From assembly GCA_947259245.1 (NCBI GenBank), contig CAMYLP010000003.1:27118-91117 (forward strand): a DNA stretch of 64,000 bases, given 5' to 3'. Position 1 is the first letter of the stretch, and every line of letters begins with the position of its first letter. The notes beneath the pieces are model-generated. The model had not been told where the DNA came from. It saw nothing but the letters and a program-made list of their open reading frames with translations, and did not search any database. A program made the translations under genes and the position numbers. Of this stretch, positions 3,569-58,262 are shown one piece after another. Origin of the DNA: an uncultured Patescibacteria group bacterium. GTDB lineage: Bacteria; Patescibacteriota; Minisyncoccia; Phycocordibacterales; UBA12088.

Positions 3569-4246
3569 TTACGTTCTTCCCTTTCGCCACTCTTCAATAT
3601 CTTTATGGTTTCCTGACAGGAGCACCTCTGGTACTTTGTAACGTTTTCCCTTCCATGTTAGCACTTCAGGCCGCGTGTACACCTCCGACGCAGCGATGCG
3701 ACGTTCCTCGATAGACTCGTCATCACCCAGGACGCCTGGCAACCTTCGTGTGATAGCGTCGAGCATGACCATGGCTGGTAATTCACCACCGGTGAGAGTA
3801 TAGGGGCCTATGGTCACAGCCTCTGCACGCAGTATCTTCTTCACGCGCGCGTCCACCCCTTCGTAGCGACCACAGATGAGGATGACGTGCTTTAGTCTCG
3901 TTGCAAGTTTTTCTGCATACACAGTATCAAACTGCTTACCACCCGGCTCAAAAAAAATGATTTTCACCTTTCGACGATTCTTCCTCCCAAGCGCTTTTGT
4001 CACCGCCTTCAACACACTCTCAGCTTCAAGGACCATGCCGGGGCCACCACCGTATGGCCGTCTGTCAACACGGGACCACTTGTCCTTGGTGAAGTCGCGT
4101 GGATTATAAAAGCTGACACGTATCGTCTTGCTCTCGATTGCACGCTTCACTATTGACTCGTTGATGTATGACTCGAACGCCTTTGGAAACAAGGTAATGA
4201 TGTGGAAATGCATAGCGGTACTATACCCCACTTCGCATAAAAACAA
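3569..4246 (-). CDS. trmD: tRNA (guanine37-N1)-methyltransferase
   Basis: MHFHIITLFP.. SPOUT/TrmD signature, size ~215 aa; likely true start at internal Met (4213). Confidence 0.85.
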   Translation of the reverse strand: MFLCEVGYSTAMHFHIITLFPKAFESYINESIVKRAIESKTIRVSFYNPRDFTKDKWSRVDRRPYGGGPGMVLEAESVLKAVTKALGRKNRRKVKIIFFEPGGKQFDTVYAEKLATRLKHVILICGRYEGVDARVKKILRAEAVTIGPYTLTGGELPAMVMLDAITRRLPGVLGDDESIEERRIAASEVYTRPEVLTWKGKRYKVPEVLLSGNHKDIEEWRKGRT

Positions 4247-4286
4247 ACACCTGCGGTCAGGTGTTTGTTTCTTATTGTGTATGTGT

Positions 4287-5252: not shown

Positions 5253-5963
5253 TCATGCATTCCATCCTTTGGTCTCTAGTGCACATTGTGCGGCAGACTG
5301 CTCCGCCTCCTGTTTACTTCTTCCCGCGCCCTCAGCAACAAGTTCTTCATCAAGATACGCTCCAACGACGAATCGTTTATCGTGGTCAGGTCCATCTTCT
5401 GCAATGATGGCATATCGGGGCGTGATGGAGACATGTTCCTGCGCCTCTTCTTGGAAACGACTCTTACTATCTTGCCACAAGCGTTGTCTAACAACCTCGT
5501 CGACAAGAGGAAATATGTTTACCGCTATAAAACGCTGAGCATCATCATAGCCCATTCCGAGATATATCGCACCGATAACAGCCTCGAATGTGTTTGCGAG
5601 GATGTACTGTCGAGCACGACCCGTGTCTCGAGATTCTCCTCGGCTTAAGAGCAGAAGATCGTTCATGTCAAGTTTTGACGCTGCATCACTTATTGTGTTT
5701 GTGTTTACAAGAGCTGCTCTGTAGGAAGTTAACTCACCCTCAGTGCTGTCTGGATACTTGTCGTACAGAAATCTTGTGACGGCTAATTCCAATACCGCGT
5801 CACCTAAAAACTCCAGCCGCTCGTTATGCTCGATTGGATCGCCACGATGCTCATTGACGTAACTCCTGTGTGTAAACGCTGTACGGAGTAGTGACAGGTC
5901 CATGGTCGCGACCTCAAGTTTTTGTGCAAACTGTTGTAAGTGCTTTGTGTAGTCTTCATTCAT
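5253..5963 (-). CDS. rnc: ribonuclease III
   Basis: ERLEFLGDAVLELAVT RNase III signature plus C-terminal dsRBD (KQEAEQSAAQ). Confidence 0.9.
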   Translation of the reverse strand: MNEDYTKHLQQFAQKLEVATMDLSLLRTAFTHRSYVNEHRGDPIEHNERLEFLGDAVLELAVTRFLYDKYPDSTEGELTSYRAALVNTNTISDAASKLDMNDLLLLSRGESRDTGRARQYILANTFEAVIGAIYLGMGYDDAQRFIAVNIFPLVDEVVRQRLWQDSKSRFQEEAQEHVSITPRYAIIAEDGPDHDKRFVVGAYLDEELVAEGAGRSKQEAEQSAAQCALETKGWNA

Positions 5964-12272: not shown

Positions 12273-14123
12273 ATGTCTGACCGCACCTGCACGTGCGGTC
12301 AGTTTACTTTACATATGTCTAAATACGACCTACTATGTGTGTTTGTAGATACACAGCAGTACATGGAGCACGGACAGCTTGAAAAAATACGACACACACT
12401 AGCGCACCTCTTGGCTGCCGCAGTACTTGAACTCTACCCACATGCAAAGTGTGCGATCGGGCCTGCAATCGATGATGGCTTCTACTATGACTTTGACTTT
12501 TCGGGAGGGAGTAATCCGGGCGAACAGGACCTTGTACAAATTGAGCAAAAGATGCGCGAATTGCTTAAGAAGTGGGATGCCATTGTCGGTGAGAGTATTA
12601 GTAAGGAGACGGCACACGATGCGTTTAAGAATAATCCTTACAAGAATGAGCTCATAGATGACATCGTTGCACGTAATGAGGAGCTCACGCTGTACCACTC
12701 GATCGCCGGAGATAAACAAGTTTTCACAGACCTCTGCAGAGGCGGTCACTGTGAACATCCGAACAAAGATGTTGTAGCGGGTGCGTTCAAGCTTGACCGT
12801 ATTGCGGGTGCATACTGGCGTGGCAGCGAGAAAAACGAAATGTTAACTCGTATCTACGGCCTTGCATTTCCAGATAAGGAAACGTTGGATGCGTACATAC
12901 ATGCGCGAGAGGAGGCACGCAAACGGGACCACAAGAAGCTTGGACGAGAGCTTGACCTATTCTATATTGACGAGGACGTTGGAAAAGGTCTTCCTATGTG
13001 GACACCCAAGGGTACGCAAGTTAAGTTCGCTCTTGAAGAGTTCACGCGAGAGCTAGAACGGTCGTACGGGTATGAGCACGTGTGCACTCCCTACCTTGCC
13101 TCAAAGAAGCTGTACGAGATGTCAGGACACCTAGACCACTACAGCGATACAATGTATGCACCGATCGCGATGGACGATGACGTCATGTACCTGAGACCCA
13201 TGGCTTGTCCGCACCACATCAAACTCCTTCAGCGCAAACCCATCAGCTACCGCGAGCTTCCCATTCGTTACGCAGAAATTGCTGACTATAATCGGTACGA
13301 GAAATCAGGCGAGCTTATGGGTATGATACGAGTCCGGAAGTTTCAGCTTACTGATGCCCACGTCTTTGTGTCACCCGAGGGTTTGAAGGAAGAGTTCATA
13401 CACGTCTGTCAAATGATACAGGAGGGTATGAACGGACTTGGTATTAACGATATTGTTACATACCGCTTTTCCAAGCGTGATCCGCACAATACTGAAAAAT
13501 ACTATCCGGACGATGCACTCTGGACACGTGCCGAGGGTGTCATGAAGGAGGCATTGGACGAGCTTGGGCTCAGCTATGTTGAGGTAGAGGATGAGGCCGC
13601 CTTTTACGGTCCAAAGCTTGATGTACAGGCGAGGAACGTAAATGGTAAGGAGGACACGCTTTTCACTGCACAAATGGACTTTCTCTTACCAGAGAAGTTT
13701 GGTTTAGAGTACGTTGCTGAAGATGGCACGAAACAACGTCCAGTCATGATACATCGGTCTGCTATTGGTTCACTTGAACGTACGTTTGCCTTTCTCATTG
13801 AACATTATGCCGGCGCATTTCCTTTTTGGCTTGCACCTGTTCAGGTACGGGTCTTACCCGTTGGTGAGGCGCACAGTGAGTATGCAAGAGGAGTACACGA
13901 TGCGCTCCGCAAGTCGGGCATTCGTTCAGAACTTGATGAGTCCGCTGAATCACTTGGAAAGCGCATACGCTCGTGCAAAGTCGAGAAGCTGCCGTACTTC
14001 ATCGTTCTAGGCGACAAGGAGGTGGAAGCGAAGCAGGTGACCCTTGAAGGCAAGACAAAGGAGGTACATACGCTCGACTCACTTGTGTCGCTGCTAACTA
14101 TCAAAAAAAACACACGGACGTGA
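12273..14123 (+). CDS. thrS: threonyl-tRNA synthetase (TGS N1 region short/absent; N2 editing, catalytic and anticodon domains present)
   Basis: RHTLAHLLAAAV (editing HxxxH), DLCRGGHCEH, class II motifs (RDHKKLGREL, FQLTDAHVF), alternative starts at 12315/12363. Confidence 0.9.
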   Translation: MSDRTCTCGQFTLHMSKYDLLCVFVDTQQYMEHGQLEKIRHTLAHLLAAAVLELYPHAKCAIGPAIDDGFYYDFDFSGGSNPGEQDLVQIEQKMRELLKKWDAIVGESISKETAHDAFKNNPYKNELIDDIVARNEELTLYHSIAGDKQVFTDLCRGGHCEHPNKDVVAGAFKLDRIAGAYWRGSEKNEMLTRIYGLAFPDKETLDAYIHAREEARKRDHKKLGRELDLFYIDEDVGKGLPMWTPKGTQVKFALEEFTRELERSYGYEHVCTPYLASKKLYEMSGHLDHYSDTMYAPIAMDDDVMYLRPMACPHHIKLLQRKPISYRELPIRYAEIADYNRYEKSGELMGMIRVRKFQLTDAHVFVSPEGLKEEFIHVCQMIQEGMNGLGINDIVTYRFSKRDPHNTEKYYPDDALWTRAEGVMKEALDELGLSYVEVEDEAAFYGPKLDVQARNVNGKEDTLFTAQMDFLLPEKFGLEYVAEDGTKQRPVMIHRSAIGSLERTFAFLIEHYAGAFPFWLAPVQVRVLPVGEAHSEYARGVHDALRKSGIRSELDESAESLGKRIRSCKVEKLPYFIVLGDKEVEAKQVTLEGKTKEVHTLDSLVSLLTIKKNTRT

Positions 14124-14138
14124 GCCCGTGTGTTTTTC
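14103..14138. terminator. bidirectional rho-independent terminator between convergent thrS and 610-aa gene
   Basis: A8-CACACGG-acgtgagc-CCGTGTG-T5 hairpin at 14103-14137. Confidence 0.6.
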
Positions 14139-14148
14139 TGACGCGACG

Positions 14149-15981
14149 TTACTTGATACCCTGGAAAAGTTCGAATACTTTTGCGAGTGCTACTTTCGTG
14201 CCAATTCGAGCATTTGAATAGCTGTAGTCAACACATTCAACCAGAGTGCCGAGTACTTTTTCAAAGTCTGCAGCGCTCCAGGACGCGGTCAACTGTGCGA
14301 GTTGTGCATCTGGCTTGCGGTTGCCCTCAAGTCGATGCTTGTACACTTCGTCTAGGTCGCGAATAACACGGCCGATAAAATCTGCACTGTCTATTCCCTT
14401 TGTACCAAGCGTACGCAATAGTTCAAAGGCCTTTTGCTGTTGCTTTTCTACCAAGTACCCCACAAAGAGTGGTATGACTCGCATGTCATTGTCAGGTGCT
14501 GCCTCTACATTGTCAGTAACGGGTGAACCAGCATTTTGTGTTGCTTGTGCACGTTCCACGCGTTGGTGCGGTACATGTGCTCTTGGTGCTGACTGTGTCG
14601 GTACTGATCGTTGCGGCGCTGTAGCTCGAGACGTAACGGCAGGTGTTGTCGTGTCCACGGTCACATCTTGACCGCTTTGCGATGCTGAGCTCATGAGCTT
14701 TTGGCATCGTTCCTTCGACAGTAGAATCCACCCGTCTTCTCTTGGGTACATGGCTTTTGCCTGCCCGAATAGTCCATCAAGCACCTCCGTGCTGTGTTCG
14801 TTATCTTTGTTCACGAGTTCAGCTATCATACGGCCTGCTTCAGGTGACAACAGAATGTTGTCACGATGTGCGCGATCCTCGATCTGTGTGTACGAGTCAC
14901 CACCGTGCATATTGCTCATGCTAACGGGTGACGGAACAGCCGTGAGTTGGGACCGTTCGGTCGTGTGTGTATCCAAGAGTGTATGTACTGCTGCGTGCGA
15001 GTACGGACTCTTTTTTTCAGTGAGGTCGGCACGATACGTTTGAAAACGTTCAAGTGGTCGTACTACGGTTAGGGCGTATGCGATCAAGGCACTCAGTAGC
15101 AGAACTCCCATCCAGAATACAGCAGTCATTATTGGCCCTGCCTCAAAGCCAGTGTATGGTACCTGATCAAGTGTGATGAAGCTACCTGCACGTGTTACTG
15201 TGCTGTTAAGAAGAATGTTCGGCTCAGGCTCCTCCTCATCGTCGTCATTCACCACGGTACCACCACCACCATTGTCATCTTCATCGTCATCACCATTGCA
15301 GTTTATACAGCTTCCGCCACCGCCACCTCCGCCGCCACCTCCGCCGCCTGTGCTGATGGAAACTGAAGCACTACAGCTTGTGCTATCGCCATCGTCATTT
15401 GAGAATGAAGCTGTGTACGTGATATTTTCGCTTATCGTCACAATCTCACTTCCACTCGTCGCAACTGGTCCAAATCCCGGATCAAGTGTTCCAGTACTAG
15501 CATTATCACTAGACCATGTAATGGTCACCATGTCGCCACTGTTCACTGTAGATGCGCTTACGCTAATGTCACATGATAACTGGTCAACCGGTGGCTCAGT
15601 TTCCTTAGTCAATGCGACACAGACCGGCTGAACGCTGTTTGCAGAACTGAGGTCCGGGTAAGCTGCGTGATCTGCACGTACAGCATCAGCATCACTTGTA
15701 AGGACAAATGCGCTTTCAAGTGTTTCGTTGATCTGAGAAGAAACGACGTTGTCTTCAAGATCAGTTGTCGCTGCTGTGGCACCAAGCGTGGTGTCACCAG
15801 AAAGGAATGTCACGAACCAACTTTCATTTGGTTGTGAGTGGTCGACACGCGTTTCGTAGCCATCCCATGAAGCTGATTCCACAGTGTAGGTTCCAGCAGG
15901 AAGAGGTGCGCTGTACACATCACTCTGCGCATCGTCGAGAGCCCCATTGCTCATCAAGCGCTCGTGGTCACCAAAGTACAC
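14149..15981 (-). CDS. hypothetical membrane protein: ~315-aa ectodomain, poly-Gly/acidic linker, sorting-signal-like VPYTG + TM + R, ~330-aa cytoplasmic domain
   Basis: GTG start in ORF track; no own signal peptide; single TM IMTAVFWMGVLLLSALIAYALTVV; last gene of the sortase operon. Confidence 0.55.
   Translation of the reverse strand: MYFGDHERLMSNGALDDAQSDVYSAPLPAGTYTVESASWDGYETRVDHSQPNESWFVTFLSGDTTLGATAATTDLEDNVVSSQINETLESAFVLTSDADAVRADHAAYPDLSSANSVQPVCVALTKETEPPVDQLSCDISVSASTVNSGDMVTITWSSDNASTGTLDPGFGPVATSGSEIVTISENITYTASFSNDDGDSTSCSASVSISTGGGGGGGGGGGGSCINCNGDDDEDDNGGGGTVVNDDDEEEPEPNILLNSTVTRAGSFITLDQVPYTGFEAGPIMTAVFWMGVLLLSALIAYALTVVRPLERFQTYRADLTEKKSPYSHAAVHTLLDTHTTERSQLTAVPSPVSMSNMHGGDSYTQIEDRAHRDNILLSPEAGRMIAELVNKDNEHSTEVLDGLFGQAKAMYPREDGWILLSKERCQKLMSSASQSGQDVTVDTTTPAVTSRATAPQRSVPTQSAPRAHVPHQRVERAQATQNAGSPVTDNVEAAPDNDMRVIPLFVGYLVEKQQQKAFELLRTLGTKGIDSADFIGRVIRDLDEVYKHRLEGNRKPDAQLAQLTASWSAADFEKVLGTLVECVDYSYSNARIGTKVALAKVFELFQGIK
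15314..15350. repeat. GGN/GCC codon repeat encoding 12-Gly tract
   Basis: tccgccaccgccacctccgccgccacctccgccgcc on + strand (poly-Gly on minus). Confidence 0.8.
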
Positions 15982-16690: not shown

Positions 16691-17359
16691 CTACTGTACG
16701 TACTGCTTTTTGTCTGTTAATGATGCGGTGACTACCCACCGCTCCTGCTTGGCGCCAAACGTGTTGCACGTGGCCAAAGTCAGTGTGGGCGTATCCGCCT
16801 CGAAGTAAATAACTGCGTCATCCGCATTAGCTAGGTATACATCGCGGACTGTGTATTCATACGTGTGCGTATCAGAGTACACAGTGACAACGTCACCATC
16901 ATGCAGTTCTCCCAACTCATTGAACGCTTTGTACGCTTCATTTCGAACCACTGGCAAGTAGCTGCTATGTCCAAAAATGAGCATGTTCGCGCTCTCACCG
17001 GCTAGGCCGGAACCAGGGTACAGCACGGCTCCAGACAATAATGCGCGATCGAGCACCTCTACATCTGTGCTCGTGGGTGACAAAACTGTGGTGTCCACGT
17101 CGATGTCATCGATAACAATGCGTACAGGTGTCGTCAACTCGTACGGCACGTCTACTGCTTCCGTTGTGTTGCCAGAAGCAGGTGTTGCGTACAGTACATC
17201 TGTTGATGTGCTGGTTGACTCGTTGGTCACGGGGACTGGAACGAAATCGATAAGTATTAGCAAGAACGTAAGCACTGCAAATACACCAAACGTTTGCAGT
17301 ACGACGTGCGCACTGTTCGATAGCGTATCTCCTATGCTCCTGTTCTCCTTGTTACTCAT
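16691..17359 (-). CDS. sortase family transpeptidase
   Basis: N-terminal TM, LIFGHSS (His) and TLATCNTFG (TLxTC catalytic Cys) motifs. Confidence 0.85.
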   Translation of the reverse strand: MSNKENRSIGDTLSNSAHVVLQTFGVFAVLTFLLILIDFVPVPVTNESTSTSTDVLYATPASGNTTEAVDVPYELTTPVRIVIDDIDVDTTVLSPTSTDVEVLDRALLSGAVLYPGSGLAGESANMLIFGHSSYLPVVRNEAYKAFNELGELHDGDVVTVYSDTHTYEYTVRDVYLANADDAVIYFEADTPTLTLATCNTFGAKQERWVVTASLTDKKQYVQ

Positions 17360-17421
17360 ATGTTGTTCGTGTGCCGATGGACACACAAGAGCATATAACT
17401 AAATATATTATAGCAGCTATA

Positions 17422-18198
17422 TTATATGCTGTCAATGGTTGCTCCGCGTCCTTCTATAATGAGCGAGGCAAACGCGCGTGCAACTTGTCCGAAGGAGACA
17501 GTGTCAGTGTCGTCTTTCTCTTCATAGTGCACCGTAATAGACTTGGTAGCACAAGTAGGACTTTGTACAGTGATGTGCTGTTTACGTTGAAGTCGCACCA
17601 CCACTACACCCTCAGTTCCCTCCTCATGAATACGAATAGCTCGACGTGCTTTCTTGGCGTTACTCAGACCACTGTCGTTTCCGTGTGTCACAGCCACCGG
17701 AGCAAGACGTAGCGCATACATTGGTGCCCGAACAGCTAAACTGTTACGGTCGTACGAATTTTGTAAGTACGACGTGATGTTTGTACATACAGAACCCAAA
17801 CGTACAAGAATATTTTCGCTTACGCTATCGAGTATGACAAACATTTTCATACTTACTTCGAAAGTTCGTGTGGCTATACTATGTAGTCTCGCGACAATGC
17901 CTGAAAGCCACGTTTGAATGTCTTCGCTAGTTACTGTCGGCACCAAGTGCTTGTTAGGATGCGTGGGGAATATCCTCGCAGCCACAATGTCAGCATCATG
18001 TGTTTTGTACGTATCATGATCCAGATTCAATATTGAGTGTATCTCCGTATGTACGGGCGGTTCGTCCGCATAACATGTTGGCGATGATGCGCGCCGAACA
18101 TCCTCACTCTCAGTAAGGATATCAATAAGAAATTGTGTTTCGTCGAGACACAGCGTATGTGGCACGATCGAGTCTAGTTCTACAGTATTGTATTCCAT
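17422..18198 (-). CDS. hypothetical cytoplasmic protein (258 aa), first gene of sortase operon
   Basis: No TM or signal peptide, no recognised motif; preceded by consensus promoter. Confidence 0.45.
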   Translation of the reverse strand: MEYNTVELDSIVPHTLCLDETQFLIDILTESEDVRRASSPTCYADEPPVHTEIHSILNLDHDTYKTHDADIVAARIFPTHPNKHLVPTVTSEDIQTWLSGIVARLHSIATRTFEVSMKMFVILDSVSENILVRLGSVCTNITSYLQNSYDRNSLAVRAPMYALRLAPVAVTHGNDSGLSNAKKARRAIRIHEEGTEGVVVVRLQRKQHITVQSPTCATKSITVHYEEKDDTDTVSFGQVARAFASLIIEGRGATIDSI

Positions 18199-18220
18199 GC
18201 AACGTAATTTGTGTGTCTTT

Positions 18221-18274
18221 GTATACCAGCTTTATCTAGCTCTGTCAAGTTTTTCTATACAATAAAACTTGACA
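18221..18274. promoter_or_regulatory. divergent promoters sharing a 32-bp perfect palindrome (TGTCAAGTTTT-N10-AAAACTTGACA) whose arms carry both -35 hexamers
   Basis: Minus: TTGACA(rc 18243-48)-17-TATACA(rc 18221-26); plus: TTGACA(18269-74)-17-TATAGA(18292-97). Confidence 0.5.
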
Positions 18275-18347
18275 CTACACTAGCTATATGATATAGATAT
18301 CGCATACTCATTATTATCACAGGCATCACACGCCTGTCGGACAAAGT

Positions 18348-19418
18348 ATGAATGATAAGCAAAAAAAACGAAGTGAGAGCATAGCTGCAGGCGTCATGCG
18401 TGTTTTCGCTGTTATTGGACTTATTTCAATATTGGCACTAGCCGCGTGGATCGTTGTACAAGGTGCACGCTTCGCTCCAGAGGTTGGTGAGAAGCTGGGA
18501 GCTGCAGTTACCACAGTCACGTCTGTATTCAGCCGCACGCCAGGTGCCTCACTTACCTTCGACGTAGCACAACGCACTGTTAGTTCTGGTGACGTTGTAA
18601 CAGTCGGATACGAGTATCGTGGTGACGTCATACCATTGTCGTACGATTTTTCTTATGCGTGCGATACATCAGTCATACTCAGTATGAAGTCCGGAGACGA
18701 GTGGTCTTCCCTGCCCTGTGCTACAGGTGTTGCGGTTAGTGGGGATCAAGTACAGTTTATTCCGGTTAGCGACGACAAACGTCTTACGAGTCTGGCCATC
18801 ACGATCTCGGGTGGTGACATCACCGACACGACGATACTGACCGTAGTCAATACAAATGTTGCCAGTACCACGGAAGACGGTGACATCGTCCTGGATGAGA
18901 CCGCTCTGGATGATGCGTCTGCGCAGGACTCAGGCTCACCAGACAATGTAGACAACGATATGGTCTCGTCTGACATTGCGTCCACTGAATCTACTGCTAC
19001 CCGACAGTCGACGTACGTCGTGTCAACACCTGTGGATCGCACACCCGCAGACCTCATGGTGACAATCAAACAAACAGGAGTTCTGGTACCAGTTGCAGGT
19101 GATAACACGTTCTTCGAACTTTCACCTATACCATCTGACAGAACCGCCGCTGTCCGCTTTACGGTGACCAATGAAGGCGGTCAACACTCGGGTGCATGGG
19201 CCTTTGTTGCCAACCTGCCCGTACGTGGTGACGAGGAGTATCGGTATGTTTCTCCTGCACAGGCATCTCTCGCACCGAACATGGAGGTTGAATTTACACT
19301 GGGATTTGACGAAGTGTTAGACGCTTCGGTGGGTACGGTTCGCATCGAAATATTTCCGACAAACACAGTGGATCCGGTCGGTAATAACCTAGACATGGTC
19401 AACATCACTATTGACTAA
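18348..19418 (+). CDS. hypothetical membrane-anchored extracellular protein (356 aa)
   Basis: N-terminal TM VFAVIGLISILALAAWIVV; Thr/Ser/Asp/Val-rich beta-rich ectodomain. Confidence 0.5.
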   Translation: MNDKQKKRSESIAAGVMRVFAVIGLISILALAAWIVVQGARFAPEVGEKLGAAVTTVTSVFSRTPGASLTFDVAQRTVSSGDVVTVGYEYRGDVIPLSYDFSYACDTSVILSMKSGDEWSSLPCATGVAVSGDQVQFIPVSDDKRLTSLAITISGGDITDTTILTVVNTNVASTTEDGDIVLDETALDDASAQDSGSPDNVDNDMVSSDIASTESTATRQSTYVVSTPVDRTPADLMVTIKQTGVLVPVAGDNTFFELSPIPSDRTAAVRFTVTNEGGQHSGAWAFVANLPVRGDEEYRYVSPAQASLAPNMEVEFTLGFDEVLDASVGTVRIEIFPTNTVDPVGNNLDMVNITID

Positions 19419-19433
19419 GCAAACCACATGCAT

Positions 19434-19459
19434 AAACGCCCCTCCAAGGGGGCGTTTTG
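19434..19459. terminator. bidirectional terminator between 18348-19418 gene and gyrB
   Basis: AAACGCCCC-tccaa-GGGGGCGTTTT hairpin. Confidence 0.6.
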
Positions 19460-21550
<2,091 letters not shown>

Positions 21551-21564
21551 CTAGACGTAGCCGT

Positions 21565-21573
21565 ATTATACCA
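21565..21573 (-). promoter_or_regulatory. candidate extended -10 (TGgTATAAT) for gyrB
   Basis: rc of ccatattat region 21565-21573, ~32 nt upstream of gyrB ATG. Confidence 0.35.
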
Positions 21574-21606
21574 TATATGGACCATATATACAGGTGCTAT
21601 AAAACG

Positions 21607-21635
21607 TTGACATGCATGTCTGTATGTTGTATAAA
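21607..21635 (+). promoter_or_regulatory. candidate sigma70 promoter TTGACA-17-TATAAA for NUDIX gene
   Basis: TTGACA 21607-12, TATAAA 21630-35; AGGAG SD 9 nt before ATG 21665. Confidence 0.4.
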
Positions 21636-21664
21636 CAGTATAGTTAGTACACAGGAGCAACGGT

Positions 21665-36591: not shown

Positions 36592-36620
36592 AAAAAGTCG
36601 CCAGCACTACTGGCGACTTT

Positions 36621-48880: not shown

Positions 48881-49474
48881 CTATTCATCATCCTTTTTAG
48901 CTACTACCACTTTCGCTGGACGTACGACTTCACCATCTATCCGATATCCTCGTAGGAGTACCGTAGCGACAGAGTGGTCCTTCGATTCATCGCTGGCATG
49001 TACAATGCTCATGCATTCGTGAACTTTCGGGTCAAAGGCATCTCCAACCTCGCCAAAAGACGTGAGTCCTGCTGTAGCAAGACCTTGTACGAGCTGGTCA
49101 TGAATTTTCTCGACACCGTTACGCCACTCTTTGTCGACAGCCCCCCACGTTTCAGTGGAGCGCGCTTGGTCAAAGCTGTCCAGGGCCGGTATTATTCCGC
49201 GAGCTAACCGCCCTTGTGCACGTGCGTCATCCCGCGCCCGATCATTGTCCACAGTGCGCCTAAAGTTTACGAGGTCGGCCTTGCTGCGCTGCCATCCTGC
49301 CAAGTTCTCATCGCGTTCCTTTTGCACCTCTCTGAGTTCACGGCGTAGTGTCTTCAGTTTCTGTTTGAGAGCTGATGCCGCGAGTTCTGTCTCCTCTGCA
49401 ACAACCTCATCTCCGGAGTCGGCGTCAATGACGATGTCGTTTGCATCGTTCTTTTTTTGGGGGCGCTTTGACAT
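48881..49474 (-). CDS. grpE: nucleotide exchange factor GrpE
   Basis: Coiled-coil N-terminus plus GrpE C-terminal beta domain; grpE-dnaK-dnaJ order. Confidence 0.85.
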   Translation of the reverse strand: MSKRPQKKNDANDIVIDADSGDEVVAEETELAASALKQKLKTLRRELREVQKERDENLAGWQRSKADLVNFRRTVDNDRARDDARAQGRLARGIIPALDSFDQARSTETWGAVDKEWRNGVEKIHDQLVQGLATAGLTSFGEVGDAFDPKVHECMSIVHASDESKDHSVATVLLRGYRIDGEVVRPAKVVVAKKDDE

Positions 49475-49480
49475 GGCAAT

Positions 49481-49508
49481 ATTATAGAGAGGAACACAAG
49501 GGTGTCAA
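49481..49508 (-). promoter_or_regulatory. perfect-consensus sigma70 promoter TTGACA-16-TATAAT ending 6 nt before grpE ATG (leaderless transcript predicted); no CIRCE
   Basis: rc of tgtcaa 49503-08 and attata 49481-86; ATG at 49472-74. Confidence 0.5.
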
Positions 49509-49540
49509 ATTTTAATGCTTACAATGACTTATCCTATAAT

Positions 49541-57731: not shown

Positions 57732-58262
57732 TTACGCATGCTTCCTGAGTGCAGCAACCATGCTTTCGACATAGTGTATCGTTTTCTCTTCCAAGAAGTT
57801 GCCCTGCTCTGTGACCGCCTCTGCTGCATGTGATATATGAACCGCGTCACGTATGGGTACCATCTTCAGTTCAATGAGCACCGGCTTGATGTGGTCGACA
57901 ACTCGTGCACCTCCAAGGCTGCCGGACGACACACCAACAAGACCAACAGGCTTGTTGGTGTAGTCATCCCACAGCGAATCAAGTAGGAGCTTCAGCTCCC
58001 CCGGGTAACCGTGATTGTACTCGGGCACAACTAACATGAAGGCATGAGCTTTCTCTGCAATTGCTTTCCAAGCGGTCGGCGTTGTGTCAGCGCCGCCATC
58101 ACCCCACGGCGGTATGGTTGCCGCTTGGTGTACGTGGTCTCGTACATCAACCAGCTCTGTGGTCACATCTCTTTGCTGTGAGACAACATCATGCACTGCA
58201 CGAGCTATCATCTCTGATGAGCGATTGATGCGAGCGGTGCCGAGTACTACTGGTATGTGCAT
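57732..58262 (-). CDS. NADPH-dependent FMN reductase family flavoprotein
   Basis: MHIPVVLGTARINRSS.., PEYNHGYPGELK motif. Confidence 0.75.
   Translation of the reverse strand: MHIPVVLGTARINRSSEMIARAVHDVVSQQRDVTTELVDVRDHVHQAATIPPWGDGGADTTPTAWKAIAEKAHAFMLVVPEYNHGYPGELKLLLDSLWDDYTNKPVGLVGVSSGSLGGARVVDHIKPVLIELKMVPIRDAVHISHAAEAVTEQGNFLEEKTIHYVESMVAALRKHA

Follow-up and report, generated by a model that had tools for sequence, protein, structure and literature searches.

At positions 18243-18274 of the window, by which we mean the whole 64,000-nucleotide stretch of DNA analysed here, lies a 32-bp perfect palindrome, TGTCAAGTTTT-tctatacaat-AAAACTTGACA. We conclude that this palindrome is probably the core of a conserved pair of sigma-70-type promoters arranged back to back and firing in opposite directions, that its symmetry is mostly a by-product of that arrangement, and that it probably does not serve as an operator. 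As judged from alignment of orthologous loci, the promoter pair is conserved, while the 11-bp palindrome is not conserved and is lineage-specific.

The two 11-bp arms are 100% complementary and flank a 10-bp centre. The initial annotation had described an 11-bp perfect inverted repeat with a 10-bp spacer, and a repeat finder returned identical arms and an identical spacer. The palindrome is housed in the 149-bp gap between a minus-strand gene for a 258-aa protein and a plus-strand gene for a 356-aa protein. The features of the region are as follows.

16691-17386, minus strand: sortase gene (PF04203, E = 4e-22).
17407-17435, minus strand: predicted sortase promoter, TTGACA-N14-TGc-TATAAT, a perfect consensus directly upstream of the sortase gene.
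17422-18198, minus strand: hypothetical gene (258 aa), first of the minus-strand unit; no known domain.
18220-18228, minus strand: extended -10 of the predicted minus promoter, TGgTATACA, 17 bp from its -35.
18243-18248, minus strand: -35 of the predicted minus promoter, TTGACA, directed towards the 258-aa gene; TTGAC invariant, final A in 13 of 16 loci.
18243-18274, no strand: palindrome, 11-bp arms and 10-bp centre, between the two predicted start sites.
18249-18268, no strand: 20-bp spacer between the hexamers, made up of the extensions GTTTT and AAAAC and the 10-bp centre; 20% G+C.
18269-18274, plus strand: -35 of the predicted plus promoter, TTGACA, directed towards the 356-aa gene; TTGAC invariant, 2 bits per position.
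18289-18297, plus strand: extended -10 of the predicted plus promoter, TGaTATAGA, 17 bp from its -35.
18348-19418, plus strand: 356-aa gene, a single-gene unit ending at a terminator-like hairpin.
19439-19452, plus strand: terminator-like hairpin with a trailing T-run, downstream of the 356-aa gene (terminator scan).

On the plus strand, TTGACA (18269-18274) is followed after 17 nt by TATAGA (18292-18297), and on the minus strand TTGACA (18248-18243) is followed, again after 17 nt, by TATACA (18225-18220). These hexamers and spacings had been read correctly in the initial annotation (TTGACA-17-TATACA on the minus strand and TTGACA-17-TATAGA on the plus strand); what it had overlooked is a TGn motif ahead of each -10, which gives both promoters the form TTGACA-N14-TGn-TATAnA, that is, a consensus -35 combined with an extended -10. 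Both -10 hexamers have the A at -11, and at -7 they carry A, the canonical T being absent. A simple promoter scan listed neither promoter because it demands T at position 6 of the -10, and these two end in A. The core elements of the pair do not overlap, the hexamers stand 20 bp apart, and the genes begin at 18198 (minus strand) and 18348 (plus strand). Transcription would start near 18213 on the minus strand, with a leader of approximately 15 nt, and near 18304 on the plus strand, with a leader of approximately 44 nt; the predicted start sites are approximately 91 bp apart. The same design of TTGACA, TGn and -10 occurs at four other sites in the window (17435, 29337, 53388, and 57665), and the architecture is clearly in use by the organism. 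A literature search for promoter mapping in Patescibacteria found nothing relevant.

The window contains two further arrangements of promoter-like elements. At 21560-21640 there is a second back-to-back pair, in which the two -35 positions are just 13 bp apart: the apparent promoter of gyrB (minus strand) has an extended -10, TGgTATAAT, at approximately 21565-21573 and a poor -35, and the divergent gene encoding a 155-aa protein is preceded by TTGACA-17-TATAAA at 21607. At 49468-49513 the hexamers are found in convergent orientation (TTGACA-N29-TGTCAA). The minus-strand copy there forms a good promoter, AAAAT-TTGACA-N16-TATAAT, and the plus-strand TTGACA lies within the start of a 197-aa ORF that this minus-strand promoter would transcribe.

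Further evidence for the promoter pair comes from relatives. Homologs of the 356-aa protein led us to 15 further distinct orthologous loci, all from uncultured Patescibacteria, in which these homologs share 35-50% protein identity with the protein of the window. The resulting set of 16 loci represents approximately 11 independent lineages; three members, L001, L002, and L010, are 74-83% identical to one another. Scans with an alignment of the protein family gave only six loci from genomes and two from metagenomes, and no relative above 50% protein identity was found in the homolog, genome and metagenome searches. Gene order is conserved, with a large protein, the sortase, and a gene of approximately 260 aa on one side and a gene of approximately 350 aa on the other. 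In most loci the latter is followed by a convergent gyrB.

The arrangement TGTCAA ... TTGACA is present in every one of the 16 loci, with N14-TGn-TATnnn as the general pattern downstream of each hexamer. Once the sequences were anchored on the hexamers, TTGAC reached 2 bits of information in both promoters. In the plus promoter the TG and the opening two bases of the -10 do so as well; in the minus promoter the TG and the TAT of the -10 score lower, at 1.0-1.5 bits, but still stand out clearly. The plus-side TG is found in 16/16 loci. On the minus side, 13 of the 16 loci have TG at the 17-bp spacing and 2 more have it at a 16-bp spacing, and TGnTAT..T is kept at the 17-bp spacing in most orthologs. 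The plus-side -10 reads TATACA in 9/16 loci and TATAGA in the window, so that A at -7 is conserved alongside a perfect -35 and the TG. The two divergent promoters proposed in the initial annotation are thus borne out by comparison, their -35 boxes, 17-bp spacing, TG, and -10 being kept across 16 loci in which the flanking sequence is scrambled. The palindrome as such fared differently. Its promoter part is conserved in the relatives and its supposed operator part, the extension of each arm beyond the hexamer, is not: the extensions fall within the 12 nt that precede each -35, and no position there exceeds 0.5 bit, apart from -36 of the minus promoter with 0.9 bit.

The distance between the two hexamers also varies. 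Eight loci have 20 bp, two have 19 bp, three have 21 bp, and the last three have wider gaps of 31, 52, and 231 bp, respectively. Since both promoters are intact at the three wide gaps, they would be autonomous units and not halves of one site. The gap is never shorter than 19 bp and is most often 20 bp, with leader lengths varying from 16 to 110 nt, and this lower bound would fit two polymerases packed as closely as possible. The expanded gaps of 31 and 52 bp are approximately one and three helical turns longer than 20 bp. The gap lengths could reflect a conserved helical phasing, or could be due to chance (roughly p = 0.08).

The sequence of the palindrome was then set against what two divergent promoters impose by themselves. 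Two consensus -35 boxes standing divergently force 6 of the 11 arm positions to be complementary, and the inverted repeat exceeds this promoter-imposed symmetry by five complementary bases per arm. The probability that these remaining positions are complementary at 5/5 by chance is approximately 0.001 per promoter pair for uniform composition and 0.004 for the local composition of 80% A+T. A search of the window for perfect inverted repeats (arms of 11 bp or more, loops of 20 bp or less) gave 5, against an average of 0.58 and never more than 3 in 40 dinucleotide-preserving shuffles. The remaining perfect repeats, at 4241-4270, 14106-14137, 36594-36620, and 57931-57961, have arms of 11-13 bp and resemble terminators. 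Three of them (4241, 14106, and 36594) consist of a G+C core with an A-run on one side and a T-run on the other, much like bidirectional intrinsic terminators; the repeat at 57931 has neither run.

A terminator was also considered for the palindrome and rejected, given its A/T-rich stem, the lack of a T-tail, and its position between divergent gene starts. An RNA element was rejected as well, as no Rfam family matched and the palindrome is outside the predicted transcripts. Lying upstream of both predicted start sites, it would be in DNA that neither promoter transcribes, and so could not function as a hairpin in RNA. A predicted hairpin, ACAGGC-N7-GCCTGT (plus strand, 18320-18338), with no Rfam match, is present in the leader of the 356-aa gene, and most orthologous leaders also form one, in many cases built around a CACGTG- or CACACG-like motif.

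The extensions themselves differ among lineages. In the window, all five bases just inside each hexamer pair with their counterparts (5/5). The score is 4/5 in L001, L002, and L010 alike and in one further locus (L016), and it falls to 0-3/5 in the remaining lineages, approximately eight in number. Both extensions of the L001/L002/L010 clade apparently go back to TATAA, and in each member the symmetry is broken by a different single substitution. The extensions of this clade are kept better than its central 10 bp. Among the eight loci with 20-bp spacing, arm pairing beats all but 21 of 500 shuffles, a result that related sequences can give. Given this weak excess and the near-symmetric extensions of the L001 clade and of L016, some symmetry-favouring force may be at work. 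The sortase promoter of the L001 clade, which is not palindromic, bears a similar TAGA-type flank, and this hints at a preference of promoters for such flanks rather than at an operator.

The composition of the extensions raises the possibility of an UP element, an A/T-rich site for the C-terminal domain of the alpha subunit upstream of the -35, whose proximal subsite has the consensus AAAAAARNR. As in UP elements, both promoters of the window have an A4 tract at -40 to -37, and the spacer between the hexamers is 80% A+T, compared with 50% for the window; the spacers of most relatives have 43-63% G+C. On the other hand, the tract is not conserved in most relatives, and both promoters would have to share one 20-bp segment. 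Nor is the tract significantly associated with promoters: an A-tract is found upstream of TTGACA in 4/11 promoter-like sites and in 5/35 others (p = 0.19), and without the two arms of the palindrome p becomes 0.62. A-tracts also precede TTGACA at 21607 and 49508 in the window. With this non-significant enrichment we rejected the idea that promoters of this genome generally carry an A-tract upstream of the -35, and AAAAC can be read as an UP element only tentatively. The 20-bp spacer may nevertheless act as a shared, UP-like A/T-rich element.

The transcription units on the two sides required some correction. According to the initial annotation, the minus promoter drives the sortase operon. The first gene that it would transcribe is the one for the 258-aa hypothetical protein, and the sortase gene has a conserved promoter of its own, an equivalent of which is present in 10/10 relatives checked; this own promoter corrects the operon picture. 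The sortase promoter overlaps the 3' end of the 258-aa ORF. The part of the earlier claim that stands is that transcription from the palindrome promoter may continue into the sortase gene, as the terminator scan reported nothing terminator-like on the minus strand. Farther along the minus strand, a 610-aa ORF (14149-15981) has a segment resembling a sorting signal at residues 274-315, with VPYTG, a hydrophobic helix, and RPLER; the segment is in the middle of the ORF, approximately 300 more residues follow, and the ORF also contains a run of 12 glycines. The relatives have a protein of 845-1011 aa at the position where the window has ORFs of 219 and 610 aa.

The 258-aa protein has no Pfam match and no membrane segment. 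Profile searches of solved structures and of Pfam gave nothing credible and no DNA-binding domain. Apart from the protein itself, homolog searches recovered a single ortholog. The 258-aa protein evolves fast: orthologs at the same genomic position beside the sortase gene are 15-24% identical to it. Its AlphaFold model, built from an alignment of two sequences, is unusable (pLDDT 32.6). The 356-aa protein likewise has no Pfam match. It belongs to a family of 337-408 aa from uncultured Patescibacteria, labelled by depositors as Pacebacteria, Paceibacterota, Kaiserbacteria, and Saccharibacteria. An N-terminal membrane helix is followed in the model (pLDDT 72) by two beta-sandwich domains with a disordered linker between them, and the structural neighbours of this model, at low TM, include RbmA, FnBPA, and SdrD. 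The earlier description of a surface protein is consistent with these features, and on the basis of the model a membrane-anchored surface protein is plausible.

It had been proposed that a dimeric regulator binds the 11-bp arms and controls both units. A lineage-specific operator of this kind, at which a dimeric or tetrameric protein recognises the arms and represses both units by covering the -35 boxes, would exist here and separately, with different arm sequences, in the L001/L002/L010 clade; we consider it unlikely. In its favour is the perfection of the 11-bp arms, with the low chance expectation of their 5/5 extensions (p of approximately 0.001-0.004), together with the second clade, in which a different extension is symmetric at 4/5 and outlasts the central 10 bp, and the weak excess of arm pairing over shuffles (21/500). 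The centres of the arms are also 21 bp apart, or two helical turns, which would put both arms on one face of the helix; half-sites at this distance are unusual for a simple helix-turn-helix dimer. A protein reading both arms is difficult to reconcile, however, with extensions that reach at most 0.9 bit and are unconserved in approximately eight other lineages (0-3/5), or with a spacing that ranges from 19 to 231 bp, moving by 1 bp in either direction and widening to 31, 52, and 231 bp while both promoters stay intact; a fixed half-site spacing is not what the orthologs have. The members of the L001 clade have each lost symmetry by a different substitution, which argues against strong selection, and a similar flank of the TAGA type accompanies the clade's sortase promoter, where there is no palindrome. 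We also searched for further sites. No second palindrome or paired half-site was found within the 64 kb, nor any other TGTCAA-N-TTGACA double promoter. The only other exact copy of AAAACTTGACA, at 5666-5676, has no partner arm and is inside an RNase III-like ORF; unpaired and in a coding location, it was judged to be due to chance. Finally, no DNA-binding domain was detected in the product of the adjacent 258-aa gene, for which no usable structure model was obtained. Of the features that define an operator, a fixed spacing is absent, neither further copies in the 64 kb nor a regulator nearby were found, and conservation of the arms gives a mixed picture; for this reason the operator is rated low. 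Unlikely, too, is a reading in which the arms are a rapidly co-evolving operator for a putative regulator that would switch the sortase-associated cluster and the membrane-anchored beta-sandwich protein together, or in which the gap of 19-21 bp is obligatory for the pairing or helical phasing of polymerases.

The extensions might instead have a purely mutational origin. Template-switch correction of quasi-palindromes is an established mutational mechanism, and here the 6-bp repeat of the -35 boxes would have seeded an intrastrand template switch by which one A/T-rich flank was copied onto the other, with no selective value. Such an event is compatible with the promoter pair and would change only the account of where the extension came from. 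The concerted difference between AAAAC in the window and TATAA in the L001 clade is what a single copying event would give, and the palindrome folded as single-stranded DNA (-8.5 kcal/mol, z = -6) would be stable enough to form a transient hairpin. Against this, a 10-nt loop with an A/T-rich stem is not the most favourable substrate, and sequence alone cannot tell copying from selection for symmetry; we regard this origin as quite unlikely. It is highly improbable that the palindrome is a non-functional product of chance and the hexamers are no promoters at all. Such a reading could appeal to the simple consensus scan, which called neither promoter owing to the final A of the -10s, but it runs counter to the 16 loci, where all elements of both promoters are conserved amid scrambled sequence, and to the conserved position between divergent genes.

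The back-to-back promoter pair remains the explanation that we prefer. Each promoter would combine TTGACA as a consensus -35 with an extended -10, TGnTATAnA, across a 17-bp spacer. The minus promoter would start transcription near 18213 into the 258-aa gene, probably reading on into the sortase cluster, and the plus promoter would start near 18304 into the single gene for the membrane-anchored beta-sandwich protein. Two consensus -35 boxes facing apart automatically create a 6-bp inverted repeat, which an A4C tract upstream of each -35 lengthens to 11 bp in this lineage. The extension would most likely originate from similar A/T-rich, UP-like flanks, or from chance or symmetrisation by template switching. 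If the two units are coupled at all, the coupling would run through RNA polymerase itself, by sharing upstream DNA for the alpha C-terminal domains, and by a second route, the negative supercoiling left behind each polymerase; no bound dimeric regulator would be needed. The sequence elements, their conservation, and the lack of conservation of the extensions are observed; the start sites, promoter activity, UP-like function, and supercoiling coupling are inferred.

Palindromic operators that overlap divergent promoters are known, for example, from tetR/tetA and from CIRCE, the 9-N9-9 element bound by HrcA. The palindrome of the window shares with them a perfect inverted repeat, a spacer of approximately 10 bp, and the overlap with promoter elements of divergent genes. 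It differs in that no regulator gene is recognisable, the arms are conserved no further than the -35 boxes, the spacing varies among orthologs, no added copies occur in the 64 kb, and the arm sequence is unrelated. Extended -10 promoters (TGnTATAAT) are another known kind, with a TG at -15/-14 that is present in both promoters of the window, conserved, and recurrent elsewhere in it; the window pair adds a perfect -35 and deviates in the -10 at -7 (A for T).

Divergent promoters placed back to back can be coupled by transcription-driven negative supercoiling without a shared protein site (PMC5175336, PMC4469952). Escherichia coli ilvY/ilvC and Pseudomonas dmpR Pr/Po resemble the pair described here in having promoters on opposite strands, non-overlapping cores, and a short shared intergenic region. 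In the window, by contrast with these pairs, both promoters are near-consensus and of the sigma-70 type, approximately 20 bp separate the -35 boxes, and there is no known activator or regulator site. Coupling is documented for such pairs and only inferred for the pair in the window.

The arrangement is a known one and the biology is ordinary; no new regulatory mechanism is revealed. The regulator hypothesis would matter only if the lineage-specific extension of the arms binds a protein. What the comparison does provide is a clean promoter footprint for uncultured Patescibacteria, consisting of a consensus -35, a 17-bp spacer, a TG, and a -10 that often ends in A, which is useful for annotating transcription units in genomes that lack transcript data.
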